Positions 9,953 to 21,026 of a stretch of DNA of 64,000 nt are shown here, piece by piece. Within the stretch, counting starts at the first letter, position 1. Every line of letters starts with the position of its first letter. Origin of the DNA: Vulcanimicrobiota bacterium (GTDB taxonomy: Bacteria; Vulcanimicrobiota; Vulcanimicrobiia; Eremiobacterales; Eremiobacteraceae); contig CAWETU010000001.1 of the NCBI GenBank assembly GCA_963812135.1, positions 2,240,001-2,304,000 of the forward strand. The letters run 5' to 3'. A program made the position numbers and the translations under genes. The notes below the pieces were generated by a model. That model was not told the DNA's origin and ran no database searches. It saw only the letters and a program-made list of their open reading frames with translations.

Positions 9953-11944
9953 ATGCCACACAACACTCGGACCAAGGAGCGCCAGCCGAAAAAGACCCAG
10001 TCGCTGCCCACCGGCACGGTCACTTTTCTGTTCTCAGATATCGAAGGCAGCACTGAGCGTTGGGAAAAGCATCACGCGCCGATGAAGGCCGCGGTCGCGC
10101 GCCACGAACGTCTGATGCGAGATGCGATCGCCCGACATGATGGCCACGTCTTCAAGACCGTCGGCGATGCGTTTTGCGCCGCGTTCGCCACGGCGCCGAA
10201 CGCTGTGAACGCCGCGCTCGACGCGCAACGCGCGCTCAGCGCGGAAGATTTCTCGGCGGTCCACGGTTTGCGCGTCCGCATGGGTCTGCACACCGGCTAC
10301 GCGGAGGAACGCGACGCCGACTATTTCGGGCCGGCCGTCAACCGCGTCGCGCGGCTGGTGTCGATCGGCAACGGCGGCCAGATCCTGTTGTCCGGCGCAG
10401 CCTATGAATTAGTGCAGCACGACGCACCGCAGGAGATGCGCTTCTCAGACCTCGGCTCGCACCGGCTCAAAGACCTTGCCCAGCCCGAGCACGTGTGGCA
10501 AGTGACCGCGAAGGATATGCCGGACGAATTTGCGCGTCTCAATTCACTGGACACGCTGCCGAACAACCTGCCGGTTCAAGTTACGACCTTCCGCGGACGC
10601 GAGAAAGACCTAGAAGATCTGAAGGCACAGCTCGCCGAGCATCGATTGATCAGCCTCATCGGCGCCGGGGGCGTCGGCAAGACGCGACTGGCTGCCCAGC
10701 TCGGCGCGGAAGTGCTCGACCGATTTCCGGACGGTGTCTGGATCGCGGACCTCGCCTCGGTGACCGATGCCGGACTGGTGACGAGCGTGGTCGCCAAAAC
10801 GTTGGGCGTGAGCCAAGCGCAGGTGCGTCTGGTCGACGAGTCCATGACGCAATCCCTCAAACGTAAGCGGCTTCTTCTCGTGTTGGACAATTGCGAGCAC
10901 GTGCTTGAGGCGGCCGCTGCGCTCGCCGATTCCGTTCATCGGCAGTGCCCAGACGTGTGGATCCTCACCACCACGCGCCAAGCCATGGGGATAACCGGGG
11001 AAAAAGTGCTGCGACTCAGTTCGCTCGCAGTACCGGAGAAGATGGTCAGCCACGACGCAACCACCGCGCTGAGCTTCGGCGCGGTCGCGTTGTTCGCCGA
11101 TCGCGCGTCGCTTGTCGACCAAACATTTCGGCTCGGAGACGAAAACGCCTCAGCGGTATGCGATATCTGCCGCCGGCTCGATGGCATTCCGCTTGCGATC
11201 GAGCTCGCCGCCGCGCGCGTGAAGGGGATGAGCATCCCGACGCTCGCCAAGCGGCTCGACGAGCGCTTCAAGATCCTGACGGGCGGCAGCCGCACCGCGC
11301 TCCCGCGGCAGAAAACGTTGAGCGCCCTCTTCGATTGGAGCTACGACCTGCTTTCGCCGCAGGAGCGAACGCTATTCGCTCGCGCGGCGATTTTTGCCGG
11401 CGGCTTCACGCTTGACGCCGCGGCATCGGTGTGCGGCGGCGGGGAGATCGAATCCGCGGATGTGCTTGACCTGCTCGCGTCGCTGGCGGATAAGTCGCTG
11501 ATCCAGATCGACACGACCAGTGGACACGAGAGCCACCGCATGCTTGAATCCACTCGCCAGTACGCGCTCGAAAAACTCACCGCGAGTGCCGAGCACGAGT
11601 CACTTGCACGCCGGCACGCCGACTATTTCCGCGACGTCGCAAAGAAGGCTGAGGGCAGCTTCGGGTCGATGCCGCTGAGCGATTGGCTCGGGCGTCTCGA
11701 GCCGGATGTCGAGAACTTTCGCGCGGCGATGGATTGGGCACTCGTCAACGATCACGATGTGGCGCTTGGCGGCACGATCGCCGCTTCGTTGGAGATGTTG
11801 TGGTGGCACGGCGGCGTCGAGGCGGAGGGGTTCCGGTGGATCGATGCCGCGTTCCATAAGATCGACGAGAGCGAACACCCGGAGGTAGCGGCTGAACTGC
11901 GCCGGGCGCTCGGGCTTCTCATGTCGCGCGTGCTCTACTCCTAG
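9953..11944 (+). CDS. Class III adenylate/guanylate cyclase domain plus STAND NTPase regulator
   Basis: FLFSDIEGST, GDAF, GLHTG, GAGGVGKT, LDNCEH, LDGIPLAIELAA. Confidence 0.92.
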   Translation: MPHNTRTKERQPKKTQSLPTGTVTFLFSDIEGSTERWEKHHAPMKAAVARHERLMRDAIARHDGHVFKTVGDAFCAAFATAPNAVNAALDAQRALSAEDFSAVHGLRVRMGLHTGYAEERDADYFGPAVNRVARLVSIGNGGQILLSGAAYELVQHDAPQEMRFSDLGSHRLKDLAQPEHVWQVTAKDMPDEFARLNSLDTLPNNLPVQVTTFRGREKDLEDLKAQLAEHRLISLIGAGGVGKTRLAAQLGAEVLDRFPDGVWIADLASVTDAGLVTSVVAKTLGVSQAQVRLVDESMTQSLKRKRLLLVLDNCEHVLEAAAALADSVHRQCPDVWILTTTRQAMGITGEKVLRLSSLAVPEKMVSHDATTALSFGAVALFADRASLVDQTFRLGDENASAVCDICRRLDGIPLAIELAAARVKGMSIPTLAKRLDERFKILTGGSRTALPRQKTLSALFDWSYDLLSPQERTLFARAAIFAGGFTLDAAASVCGGGEIESADVLDLLASLADKSLIQIDTTSGHESHRMLESTRQYALEKLTASAEHESLARRHADYFRDVAKKAEGSFGSMPLSDWLGRLEPDVENFRAAMDWALVNDHDVALGGTIAASLEMLWWHGGVEAEGFRWIDAAFHKIDESEHPEVAAELRRALGLLMSRVLYS

Positions 11945-15361: not shown

Positions 15362-16782
15362 TTGATCAGATGGTTGTGGCTGGCGTCGGCGCTGTATGCG
15401 CTGGCCGCCGGCACGCTGGTGACGATCCATTGGATGCGCTGGCAGACCGGCGTGGACACGGGCGTCTACACGCAGGTCGTGCTCAACACGTTCAACGGGT
15501 TCCGCTCGACCTTCGAAAACGGGCCGCACTTCGCGGTGCACTTCTCCCCGCTGCTCGGCATCTTCTTCCCCTTGGTGGCTGTCACGCATTCTGGTCTGGC
15601 GCTGGAACTCGCGCAGGTCGCGCTCATCGCGTGCGTGCCGCTTGCGCTCTATGGCTTCGTTCTGCCTCACGTCGGCGAGGCGCTGGCGCTGCGCGTCGGC
15701 TTCATCGCGCTGCTGTATCCGCCGCTTGCCGCGATCGGCATCGGCGAATTTCATATCTTGGCATGTTTGCCGCTGCTCGTCATCGGCGCCCTGTGGGCGT
15801 TGGACCGAGGGCACGGCGCCTGGTTTGGGTTGTTCGCGGGCATGTTGTTGTTGGTGCGCGAGGACGTGCTCCTCGAATTGCTGGTCATCGGAGTGGTCGG
15901 TGGCATCGTCGCGTTACGCGCCTCGCATGGCGTGGGTTCGCTGTTCGCGTCGCCTGCGTCGCGCGGTTTGGTGGGCGCCGCGAGTATCGGGCTCGGCGTC
16001 GCGTCGGGCGCAATGGCCGGATTGTATTTCGGCGTCATCCAGCCGGCGTTCGGCCACTACGGTTGGTACCCGCTGCTCTACTATCGTTTCGGCATCACGC
16101 GCGGCTCGGTGGGCGCGCTCTCGCAGCCGCCGGTCGGCCCGCCACCGAACCCGAGCGCGTCATTGCCGCGACAGCTTTTCGAACGCTTCACGTACTTGCT
16201 CGAGGCGTTCGTGCCGCTGGCGCTGTTGCCGTTTCGCACATGGTGGTGGTTGCTTGCGGTGCCCGGCTTGACGATCGTCCTTGCGGCGACGAGCGCGTCG
16301 ATCTGGACCATGGGCTCGCAGTATGCGCTCTTGTGGGCGCCGTGGCTGCTCGTCGCGACTGCGGTCGCCGTGATCCACGTTCGCGCCACGCTGGGGGAGG
16401 CCGTGGCGCGCCGTTGGACGGGAGCTGCGATCGGCTTATGCCTTGTCTTTCTCGTCGCGATCAACCCGATGCATCTGCAATACTATTTCCGGCCGCCCTA
16501 TCACGATTTGGCTTCCGCACAGCGCGCGCTGGCGTGTGTGCCGAGAAGGGGCATCGTGTGGCGACGCACGACGAATGGTTCACCCACATCGCGGGCACCA
16601 ATCCGCTTGCCAACGGCAATGTCGTCACCGGCGTTGACTACCTCGTGTATGCCGACGACTATCCGGATGCGGCGTTCGAGCGCGAGGTCAAACCCAAGTT
16701 ACAAGCGGAGATCGCGGCCGGCCGCGTGCGCGTGTTGTGCTCGTTCGGGAGCGTGAAAGCGTATCAGAAAACGGTCGAATAA
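15362..16782 (+). CDS. DUF2079 family membrane protein (frameshift near 16560)
   Basis: DTGVYTQ, HFAVHFSP, EFH, RED motifs, many TM helices. Confidence 0.82.
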
Positions 16783-16795
16783 ATTCGACCGATAC
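16772..16795 (-). repeat. GTAG-type REP palindrome (GTAT variant)
   Basis: CGGTCGAATAAATTCGACCG+ATAC; contains the upstream gene's stop codon. Confidence 0.8.
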
Positions 16796-16812
16796 GGGCG
16801 TCGAGAAAATGC

Positions 16813-16843
16813 GAGAGCCGGCTGCGTGATGCAGCCGGCTCTC
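16813..16843. terminator. 13-bp perfect hairpin, probable bidirectional terminator
   Basis: GAGAGCCGGCTGC-gtgat-GCAGCCGGCTCTC between convergent ORFs. Confidence 0.75.
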
Positions 16844-16869
16844 AAGTATTTTATGTATGGATTACGTGG

Positions 16870-17019
16870 TTAGGGAAGCGCGTTGATCTCCGGTCGCTCG
16901 AAGACAAGCTTGGTCATCGAGACGATCGCGATGTAGTACGCGTGCATTTCGGCCCGCGTGAGCCGCTGCGTCGCGGCCGTTTGGCGTAGGTTCCCTTGGG
17001 TCAGGATCTGCTTTTTCAT
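16870..17019 (-). CDS. Small protein, 49 aa (MKKQILTQGNLRQTAATQRLTRAEMHAYYIAIVSMTKLVFERPEINALP)
   Basis: GGAGGTGG RBS, downstream terminator hairpin. Confidence 0.6.
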   Translation of the reverse strand: MKKQILTQGNLRQTAATQRLTRAEMHAYYIAIVSMTKLVFERPEINALP

Positions 17020-17117
17020 TGCCGCCACCTCCGTGGCCGTCATACTCTATATCGGTAAAACTAAGCGAGCAAGCACAACGTTACGGCTGCGCTGATGAAA
17101 GCCGCATTAGAGTCAGG

Positions 17118-17174
17118 AAAAAGAAAGAACCAGCGCTTTTACGCTGGTTCTGGTGCGGGTGCAGACCTGTCACT
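17118..17174 (-). ncRNA. Antisense sRNA, locus 1 (complementary to the tRNA-like RNA)
   Basis: TATAAT at 17179-17184; 24-nt complement of 17293-17316; GAACCAGCG/CGCTGGTTC stem plus U-tract. Confidence 0.7.
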
Positions 17175-17258
17175 TATGATTATACCGTCTCCTTCGTAGA
17201 GGATCGCAAGGGGCCGGCGTCAGACCTGTGCCGCCGCCCCCTTCCGCATAGCGGAGGC

Positions 17259-17326
17259 TGGAGGCGTCGGGAATCGAACCCGAATGCACGACGTGACAGG
17301 TCCGCACCCGCACCAGCGGCGCCCCC
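17259..17326 (-). ncRNA. 68-nt compact tRNA-like RNA (Ala acceptor stem, GUC anticodon), locus 1
   Basis: GGGGGCG/CGCCTCC-A acceptor, CCGC-TGGT-GCGG D arm, CTGTCAC loop, TCGGG-TTCGATT-CCCGA T arm; TTGACG-18-TATCTA upstream. Confidence 0.75.
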
Positions 17327-17443
17327 AACCGCGTTAGATATCACGACGGCACCCGCAACGTCAAGAAGCGTGGCGGATCTGGCGACTCGCGTTTTCATTT
17401 TGCTTTCACGCGAAGGCTGGCTTGGGTTGCTATCCTTGGTGCT

Positions 17444-18775
17444 GTGAAGCTCCTGAGAAATTCTGCCCTCGCGTTGCTGGCTTTCGTGGTCCTTGCAGGT
17501 TGCGCCGGCGGTGGCGGCGCCGGCCTTCCACCGCCCGGCCCGACCCCGACGCCTCCGGCTGCGTCAAAAATCAAATACGTCATCATCATTTTCCAAGAGA
17601 ACCGCACGCCGGACAACCTGTTCCACGGTCTGCCGGGTGCCGACATCGCGAACAGCGGCACGAATTCGATGGGCCAAGTCGTGCCGCTCATCCCTGTGGA
17701 CATCACCGCACCGTACGATCTGGACCATAGCCATAAGGGTTTTACGACCGAATACAACGGCGGCGCGATGAACGGCTGGGATCTGGTCGGCGTGAATTGT
17801 CCAAGCCACGCTTGCAATCCGCAAACCGCGTTTGGTTACGTGCCGCAGGCCGAAGTGCAACCGTACTTCACGATGGCTGAGCGCTTCACGTTCGCCGACC
17901 GGATGTTCCAGACCAATCAGGGCCCGAGCTTCCCCGCGCACCAGTTCATCATCTCGGGTACGTCGACCGATTCGGTGGGCAGCACGCTGCTGGCCGCCGA
18001 GAACCCGAACTACTTCGCCAATAACAAGCTCGATTGCGACGGCTCGACCCAGTCGCTGGTGAAGATGATCGATCCGTCGGGCAGCGAGGCGACGTCATTG
18101 CGGCCCTGCTTCGATCACCCGACGCTGTTCGACTCGCTCGATGCCAAGGGTATCACCTGGCGTTACTACGATTCGTTCAACGGCGGCCTGTGGTCCGCGC
18201 CAGACGCGATCGCGCACATCCGCAACGGCACCGACTGGAACAACGTCAGCCTGCCGAGCTCCAATATCCTGACCGACATCTCGAGCGGGCAGCTGCGCCA
18301 GGTCTCGTGGGTCATCCCGTCAGCCGCCGCTTCCGACCACGCGCTCTCAACCGATGGCAGCGGACCGGCGTGGGTGGCGTCGGTCGTCAACGCGGTCGGC
18401 CAAAGCCAGTACTGGTCTAACACCGCGATCTTCATCACGTGGGATGACTGGGGAGGTTGGTTCGACCACGTCCAGCCGCAGATGTTCAATTCATACGAGT
18501 TGAGTTTCCGGGTCCCGTTGATCGTGGTGTCGCCCTACGCGAAGCCTGCGTACGTGTCGCACGTGCAGCACGAGTACGGCAGCATCCTGAAATACGTCGA
18601 AGAGACGTATGGCCTGCCGTCGCTCGGCTACACGGATGCGCGCGCGGACGATCTTTCGGATTGCTTCAACTACAGCCAAACGCCGATCGTCTTCCAAATG
18701 ATCCCGGCGGACCGCAAGGCGGCGGACTTCATCCGCGCGCCGATGGTCAACGTGCCGCCCGACGACGATTTTTAG
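17444..18775 (+). CDS. Phosphoesterase/phospholipase C family lipoprotein
   Basis: LAGC lipobox, QENRTPDN, GPSFPAH, TWDDWGGWFDHV, FRVPLIVVSPY. Confidence 0.92.
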   Translation: MKLLRNSALALLAFVVLAGCAGGGGAGLPPPGPTPTPPAASKIKYVIIIFQENRTPDNLFHGLPGADIANSGTNSMGQVVPLIPVDITAPYDLDHSHKGFTTEYNGGAMNGWDLVGVNCPSHACNPQTAFGYVPQAEVQPYFTMAERFTFADRMFQTNQGPSFPAHQFIISGTSTDSVGSTLLAAENPNYFANNKLDCDGSTQSLVKMIDPSGSEATSLRPCFDHPTLFDSLDAKGITWRYYDSFNGGLWSAPDAIAHIRNGTDWNNVSLPSSNILTDISSGQLRQVSWVIPSAAASDHALSTDGSGPAWVASVVNAVGQSQYWSNTAIFITWDDWGGWFDHVQPQMFNSYELSFRVPLIVVSPYAKPAYVSHVQHEYGSILKYVEETYGLPSLGYTDARADDLSDCFNYSQTPIVFQMIPADRKAADFIRAPMVNVPPDDDF

Positions 18776-20762: not shown

Positions 20763-20819
20763 GAAAACAGGTCGACCGCGCCTTTCAGCGCGGTCGATTG
20801 CTAACACTGGACCGTCACC
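20763..20819 (-). ncRNA. Antisense sRNA, locus 2
   Basis: TTGCAG-17-TATAAT promoter (20847-20852/20824-20829); 13-nt exact complement of 20943-20955, extendable with G.U pairs; 10-bp terminator stem. Confidence 0.72.
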
Positions 20820-20906
20820 TTAAATTATACCGATTCCTGAAGCGAGCTGCAAGTGGGCAGCGTCTGGTCCGTGGTCGCTGCCCGCTCTCCGCTTTGTATC
20901 GGAGGC

Positions 20907-20974
20907 TGGAGGCAGCGGGACTCGAACCCGCGACACGCGGCTTGACGGTCCAGTGCCGGCACCTGCCCACCCCC
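20907..20974 (-). ncRNA. 68-nt compact tRNA-like RNA (Ala acceptor stem, GUC anticodon), locus 2
   Basis: GGGGGTG/TGCCTCC-A, GGC-AGGT-GCC, CC-GTC-AA loop, GCGGG-TTCGAGT-CCCGC. Confidence 0.75.
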
Positions 20975-21026
20975 AACCAACCGCCCCTATCACTGAAAGC
21001 GCTCTGGCCGTAAAGGTCTTGGGGCG

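Follow-up and report, generated by a model that had tools for sequence, protein, structure and literature searches.

A predicted RNA-only gene pair in which a small RNA faces a tRNA-shaped RNA in a Vulcanimicrobiota bacterium

We analyzed a 64,000-nucleotide (nt) stretch of a Vulcanimicrobiota bacterium genome (GCA_963812135.1, contig CAWETU010000001.1, positions 2,240,001-2,304,000), here called the window, whose internal positions are used as coordinates. With modest confidence, we read a locus on its minus strand (locus 1) as a self-contained two-gene RNA module in which a small RNA (sRNA) would be the dedicated antidote to a transfer RNA (tRNA) mimic, in a toxin-antitoxin-like arrangement. 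The complementarity, predicted folds and covariation described below suggest that the sRNA probably neutralizes an alanine-accepting mimic. The RNA pair appears to be widespread in uncultured bacteria and previously undescribed, and no match to such a class was found in Rfam 15 or in the full-text literature searched (subscription journals not covered).

Read along the minus strand from 17400 to 17100, locus 1 begins with a promoter-like region (17335-17364; -35-like hexamer at 17359-17364, TG-extended weak -10 at 17335-17343), followed by a 4-nt leader, a 68-nt tRNA-like body (17326-17259, with G1 at 17326 and a discriminator A at 17259) and two trailer hairpins. On the same strand, ∼85 nt downstream of the tRNA-like gene, lies the sRNA gene. 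Its promoter (17179-17209) has a -35 at 17204-17209, a 19-nt spacer that the initial annotation had noted and that can be read directly from the sequence, and a consensus -10 at 17179-17184. The predicted start of sRNA 1 (17118-17173, ∼56 nt) opens a 24-nt complementary stretch, or seed (17173-17150), which leads into an 11-bp terminator hairpin (17126-17151) and a U run; a consensus scan reported the terminator at 17151-17126. The promoter-like region of the tRNA-like gene is absent from the output of a strict promoter scan, and a GTGA box stands at its position, by eye, in 22 of 25 GC-type members of the family described below.

The 24-nt complementarity with a single G.U pair, first proposed from the letters alone, was recovered by a repeat finder as an inverted repeat of 17150-17173 and 17293-17316, with 23/24 matches (96% complementary) and 119 nt between the arms. 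The one mismatch, A in the sRNA copy against G in the target on the plus strand, becomes a G.U pair when both are minus-strand RNAs. Searching for the 24-mer with up to 3 mismatches returned these two sites only, and no match occurred in 100 shuffles. The target (17293-17316, minus strand), delimited by the repeat finder, the mismatch search and the fold, covers the D-arm loop and 3′ strand and, in the anticodon-like arm, the loop together with the 5′ strand of the stem; alignment and folding of the target support the proposed pairing from the D arm through the anticodon-like loop.

Folding, which had been suggested as a check, gave a cloverleaf as the minimum free energy structure of the 76-nt RNA 1 alone (17255-17330, minus strand, comprising the body with its 4-nt leader and 4-nt trailer; 80.2 bits with our covariance model R1). 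This structure has a predicted energy of -41.8 kcal/mol, an ensemble frequency of 0.475 and a z score of -3.5, and 0 of 200 shuffles were as stable; the duplex with the sRNA was computed at -55.3 kcal/mol. The closing stem of 11 bp combines 7 acceptor pairs with 4 leader-trailer pairs that lengthen it, the D arm has 4 bp and a UGGU loop, the T arm has 5 bp, and in the anticodon-like arm a 1x2 internal loop separates 4-5 bp from 3 bp topped by a 7-nt loop. The general plan is a tRNA-like cloverleaf with four helices, a T loop, the GG of the D loop and a D arm of 3-4 bp with a 4-nt loop, without nucleotides 8, 9 and 26 and without a variable loop; CCA is not encoded after body 1. By our estimate, the anticodon-like arm stacks roughly as many layers as the D and anticodon stems of an ordinary tRNA do together, so that an L shape is conceivable.

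The host genome encodes a normal transfer-messenger RNA (tmRNA; 149 bits, tag ANSEYALAA) and 47 tRNA genes elsewhere. The acceptor stem of locus 1 is identical to that of this tmRNA, including G3.U70 and A73, and the 7-nt loop of its anticodon-like arm is the anticodon loop of the genome's own tRNA-Asp. ARAGORN found no tRNA gene in the window and, of 35 family members, called 2 at default settings and 18 in mitochondrial mode, so the initial idea that the target is a canonical tRNA had to be given up. Rfam gave no match in the window at gathering thresholds; under permissive settings the best models were those of tmRNA (RF00023; 27.5 bits, cut-off 47) and permuted tmRNA (RF04321; 29.3 bits), both covering the acceptor stem and T arm only. 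The alanine-type acceptor stem with G3.U70, A73 and T arm are indeed shared with the tRNA-like domain of tmRNA (SsrA), but only 36 nt separate the acceptor strand from the T arm, with no mRNA-like region, tag frame or pseudoknots, and the RNA instead features a D arm plus a long anticodon-like arm. Judged from its sequence, the target is a structured, tRNA-shaped RNA with alanine identity marks, neither a canonical tRNA nor a tmRNA.

Comparative evidence came from one scan each of a genome collection (42 loci) and a metagenome collection (75 loci). The 98 distinct pattern matches were reduced to 37 with a downstream complement of 15 or more pairs behind a -10-like hexamer, and then to 35 members by removing a low-complexity locus (L050) and one with an identical central region. 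Across this alignment, the hand-drawn cloverleaf pairs 92.5% of cells, versus 44-57% with partners slid. Compensatory changes were found in 17 of 27 pairs and in all four helices, and 0 of 500 shuffles reached any observed measure. Columns fixed by the search pattern are invariant and uninformative for covariation; the signal comes from the D and anticodon-like arms and from the outer pairs of the T stem. Where a clear 7-nt anticodon-like loop is present (17 members), A37 is found in all 17, U33 in 10, and the triplets are GUC (13), GCG (2), GUA (1) and GCC (1).

Pairing is predicted to be largely specific to each locus. Over the 35 members, cognate duplexes averaged -47.4 kcal/mol versus -25.0 for noncognate ones, a contrast that is partly circular given that members were selected for at least 15 pairs, and for 32 of the 35 tRNA-like RNAs the own sRNA is the best partner. 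The same is predicted for the only two copies in the 2.79-Mb host genome. Locus 2 (20764-20978, minus strand) repeats the part order of locus 1 with different seed letters: a paralogous tRNA-like RNA 2 (20903-20978; R1 81.5 bits; sRNA 2 target ∼20943-20955), a trailer hairpin 2 (20855-20883) in which the seed copy in the loop is broken by one A.A mismatch, and an sRNA 2 gene (20764-20852) with a -35 at 20847-20852, a 17-nt spacer, a -10 at 20824-20829, a seed from ∼20818 and a terminator to ∼20764. Own pairs were computed at -55.3 and -38.2 kcal/mol and crossed pairs at -28.6 and -26.8 kcal/mol. By these predicted energies the two copies are orthogonal, with pairing that covaries between them.

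A less circular test used a covariance model of the tRNA-like RNA alone on a 151-genome sample of the phylum. The 37 best matches in the fetched loci read as 9 ordinary tRNA genes (7 Asp, 2 Ala) and 28 tRNA-like RNAs. Partners with at least 13 pairs were found at +36 to +84 for 26 of the 28, whereas none of the 9 ordinary tRNA genes exceeded 12 pairs with its downstream sequence. By eye, G3.U70 is kept in all 28, and the model also detects tRNA-Asp genes that lack it.

We propose that gene 1 gives rise to a 68-nt tRNA-shaped RNA with the alanine identity set G3.U70 and A73, and that gene 2, from a strong promoter of its own, yields a 56-nt sRNA made up only of a 24-nt single-stranded 5′ seed and a terminator. 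The seed would pair with the D arm and with the anticodon-like loop and the 5′ half of its stem, unfolding the cloverleaf except for the T arm, and the sRNA would thus act as a dedicated antidote that holds the mimic inactive. Free mimic would be harmful or tightly rationed, most simply because alanyl-tRNA synthetase (AlaRS) could charge it. The tRNA-like gene has a weak, nonconsensus promoter and the sRNA a strong, near-consensus one, the division expected if a stable structured RNA and its antidote formed an RNA-RNA toxin-antitoxin-like pair. A study of yeast tRNA-Ala variants (PMC10543346) describes AlaRS as recognizing G3:U70 and ignoring the anticodon, and anticodon variants as misincorporating alanine and slowing growth; charging of the tRNA-like RNA is therefore plausible. 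A bolder version, to which we give rather little credence, is that the RNA is matured, CCA-tailed and alanine charged and decodes its own triplet as an sRNA-gated alanine mistranslator. The triplet would be GUC (Asp) at locus 1 and GAU, GAC, GCG or GUA in other copies, and loss of the antidote would place alanine at Asp, Ile, Val, Arg or Tyr codons. If so, the RNA could be an RNA-only addiction or abortive-infection toxin or part of a switchable stress response.

The same alanine marks would also suit a useful, nontoxic alanine carrier or ribosome-rescue competitor whose supply the sRNA tunes, with a message-less tmRNA-like domain or a donor for cell-wall or lipid alanylation as variants. The identity of the acceptor stem with that of tmRNA and the tmRNA models at the top of the Rfam matches agree with such a role, and jakobid mitochondria have a message-less tmRNA reduced to its tRNA-like domain. 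We nevertheless regard a carrier as fairly unlikely: orthogonal copies, tandem arrays with different loops and patchy presence better fit a selfish or defense-like module, and no conserved neighboring protein gene accompanies it.

Several lines of evidence suggest that the sRNA is a gene in its own right. Directly upstream of the complement, 30 of the 35 members have at least 9/12 matches to the sigma-70 consensus, whereas shuffled windows average 2.8 and reach 8 at most. A 17-nt spacer is present in 24 of the 35, the -10 is TATAAT in 20, and pairing begins 1-9 nt past the -10 in 34. In eight further loci, among them metagenome-assembled genomes (MAGs) labeled Gammaproteobacteria, Planctomycetaceae and Patescibacteria, the sRNA gene runs on the other strand, convergent with the tRNA-like gene or divergent from it, and has a -10 and a terminator of its own; a ninth has a partner with 11 pairs. 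With tandem, convergent and divergent arrangements of the sRNA gene, the sRNA would act in trans. Independent transcription, as the initial annotation supposed, is thus likely.

That annotation had also named its own refutation, a region transcribed as one RNA in which the repeat is only an intramolecular stem. On this explanation, 17118-17330 would be a single structured RNA, and the stem might serve, for example, RNase III processing of a tRNA-like precursor. No terminator separates the two genes at locus 1, and no U run follows trailer hairpin 2, so a read-through transcript is also possible; the predicted fold of the 219-nt read-through RNA contains the 24-bp long-range duplex (-115.4 kcal/mol, z -6.2), and in AT-rich members the tRNA-like gene is separated from the sRNA promoter by just 7-36 nt. 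The opposite-strand sRNA in eight loci rules out a purely intramolecular stem for the family, however, and together with the -35/-10 kept before the complement in 30 of the 35 members makes a single transcript quite improbable.

GC-type members have two trailer hairpins, which AT-rich members lack. At locus 1, trailer hairpin 1 (17243-17255, minus strand, 5 bp) is predicted by the fold and shared by GC-type members with compensatory changes by eye. Trailer hairpin 2 (17209-17242, minus strand), also from the fold, repeats 9 nt of the sRNA seed in its loop (17221-17229), as had been reported, and this second, cis copy is conserved and covaries in the GC-rich clade. Complementarity between the hairpin 2 loop and the anticodon-like stem and loop runs to a mean of 7.56 nt for cognate versus 6.31 nt for noncognate combinations (0 of 5,000 permutations reach the cognate mean; two hairpins were mis-extracted in this test) and to at least 8 nt in 15 of 25 GC-type members. 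For the GC-rich clade, the loop copy could provide a first, cis-acting mask on the unprocessed precursor, ahead of the sRNA. The initial annotation further noted GGGGGCG in the trailer stem, matching the 5′ acceptor strand; the match is real at locus 1 and absent from the trailers of other members. With the heptamer not conserved, we discarded the idea of a second acceptor strand or a permuted-tmRNA arrangement, at which RF04321 had hinted.

Reuse of seed-like sequence in the trailer also raises the converse possibility, in which the sRNA regulates distant mRNAs and the tRNA-like RNA with its trailer is a sponge or decoy that titrates it. Sponges derived from tRNA precursors are known, such as the 3′ external transcribed spacer 3′ETS-leuZ. 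The trailer copy, however, cannot sponge the sRNA because both have the same sense. Seeds vary among paralogues and orthologues while pairing is retained, the sRNA consists of seed and terminator with nothing else, and complementarity of 20-26 nt far exceeds the usual length of trans targets; we consider such a reversal of roles improbable. Exceedingly improbable is a decayed tRNA or tmRNA fragment from integrative elements with chance complementarity: in the host genome the 3′ half of a tRNA-Ala does recur at a distance of 6.8 kb, but no match is expected from shuffles, compensatory changes occur in all four helices, and promoters and terminators are conserved across phyla. A scar at an integrase attachment (att) site was ruled out by the 24-mer shuffle test and the covariation.

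Several observations weigh against an antidote paired with a chargeable mimic, besides the circularity mentioned above and the read-through fold available at locus 1. The 7-nt loop is found in only 17 of 35 folds, position 33 is C in 7 of those 17, and AT-rich members have 8-nt loops. The discriminator base pairs with the leader in the 35-sequence fold, and no RNase Z equivalog scored above the cut-off in the host genome; maturation to a chargeable 3′ end is therefore uncertain. The 19-nt sRNA spacer of locus 1 occurs in 2 of 35 members, against the typical 17 nt seen also in the orthologue L020, and a strict promoter scan (spacers of 16-18 nt only) reports no site in 16700-17600. Among 19 further tRNA-like matches, 10 have no partner within the ∼350-400-nt flank. 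Finally, matching RNA contigs cover 16870-17121 only and give no evidence of a transcript of either small RNA. These contigs came from three RNA runs, which with one DNA run (24 runs listed) gave one short contig each from relatives 90-99% alike. The four contigs span 16870-17149 only, comprising a 57-amino-acid (aa) open reading frame (ORF), its upstream region and the sRNA terminator, and are uninformative on either small RNA or on habitat.

By record titles, GC-rich members of the family fall in Eremiobacterota/Vulcanimicrobiota, and the module also occurs in MAGs labeled Planctomycetaceae, Gammaproteobacteria and Patescibacteria. A pattern of the T arm and trailer alone matched 10 of 32 genomes of the same taxonomic family (G031 counted among the nonmatches). 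The matching loci hold 15 elements, 14 of which are a full tRNA-like gene with a downstream complement of 16-26 pairs, although the search pattern did not include the sRNA. One locus, L024, retains the T arm, trailer hairpins, promoter and sRNA but lacks the 5′ half of its tRNA-like gene, and may have decayed, leaving the antidote an orphan. One relative carries three modules in tandem with differing seeds. Class-level relatives (L161:1400-2200, minus strand, and L163) have tandem arrays of 3-5 variant modules with a period of ∼300 nt. In each variant the D stem has 5 bp and the sRNA carries a second box that could pair with the acceptor/D junction; some of these variants are labeled tRNA-Ile or tRNA-Val by ARAGORN. 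A scan of viral contigs gave two matches, neither a module member and both resembling message-less tmRNA domains, and the module is therefore not obviously phage-borne. L082 (the same as L204, a viral contig) and L123 encode ∼69-nt tRNA-like RNAs with a tmRNA-like start and UUCGAC box, ending in a tmRNA T arm and acceptor strand with only a hairpin between. Their sequences make them candidate message-less tmRNA domains.

At one chromosomal site, the module is an accessory unit, present or absent: locus 1 is bordered by a small ORF and a phosphoesterase gene, which lie side by side in a congeneric genome (81% complete) that lacks the ∼290-nt module between them, and the covariance model with filters off found no match in 11 syntenic loci. 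All-against-all comparison of flanking ORFs in 14 loci linked no protein consistently to the module, and Pfam, NCBIfam and PADLOC scans of the neighbors returned ordinary families only. The host genome encodes RNase III, Hfq and a CCA-adding-type nucleotidyltransferase, and 27 of its 47 tRNA genes lack an encoded CCA.

Among known systems, type I toxin-antitoxin pairs of the hok/sok type share an adjacent short antisense RNA with a strong promoter, seed pairing by a 5′ end or loop, a cis mask of the same site in the target, multiple orthogonal copies and a patchy distribution. At the level of sequence only, locus 1 likewise has a neighboring antisense RNA gene, under a promoter of its own, whose product would pair with the target; the sRNA, however, lies beside its target and would act in trans rather than overlapping it. 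As to a small toxic protein, ORFs over the element resemble one another solely where the DNA itself is conserved (a comparison made without a dedicated coding test), and we consider the module to lack a toxin reading frame because selection acts on RNA pairs, as seen in the compensatory changes. Like type VIII RNA-RNA systems (CreTA, SdsR/RyeA), the module would have RNA for both partners and is connected with tRNA function. CreT works by sequestering a tRNA and CreA via Cascade, whereas here the presumed toxin would itself be tRNA-shaped and its antidote would act by direct pairing. Compared with tRNA-Ala and mistranslating tRNAs (yeast tRNA-Ala anticodon variants, PMC10543346; bacterial tRNAProX, PMC10404621), the module RNA shares the combination of alanine identity with nonalanine anticodon-like triplets; it differs in its noncanonical cloverleaf without linker nucleotides or variable loop and in having an antisense sRNA as partner rather than a synthetase gene. 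Allo-tRNAs and other irregular tRNAs of soil bacteria are also noncanonical tRNA-like genes in soil metagenomes, and some are toxic in Escherichia coli and were discussed with toxin-antitoxin loci, according to sections of PMC5389517. They have an 8/4 or 9/3 acceptor/T geometry and neighboring protein toxin-antitoxin genes, and those sections describe no cognate sRNA (PMC5389517).

If our reading holds, the module would be a widespread RNA-only gene pair with an sRNA dedicated to a tRNA-shaped RNA instead of an mRNA, and it may represent a new RNA-RNA toxin-antitoxin or defense type in Eremiobacterota, candidate phyla radiation bacteria and others. It would offer a natural set of orthogonal RNA-RNA pairs and a directly testable case of regulated tRNA mimicry or alanine mistranslation. 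Even read most cautiously, the module adds a structured RNA family that is well supported and whose partner is defined.

Other features of the window and host genome were also recorded. The 57-aa ORF (16870-17043, minus strand) lies directly downstream of sRNA 1 and matches no Pfam, NCBIfam or PADLOC family. It adjoins the module in the orthologous locus L020, lies upstream of the module in L017 (66% identity) and is covered, with ∼78 nt upstream, by metatranscriptome contigs from relatives. A ∼26-nt hairpin at ∼16770-16800 (scored as a terminator at 16791-16772) recurs in dozens of places at 90-100% identity in this genome and its congeners, and by its sequence looks like a dispersed repetitive extragenic palindromic (REP)-like element. 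Further away, 9953-11944 (plus strand) encodes a 663-aa protein with an adenylate/guanylate cyclase domain and an NB-ARC/STAND NTPase, with weak PADLOC matches to Pycsar cyclases. The partly repeated tRNA gene of the host genome is tRNA-Ala(CGC) (C1:150957-151032), whose 3′ half recurs 6.8 kb downstream at C1:157750-157797 (L004, L007); such a repeated half usually marks an island that has integrated at a tRNA gene.
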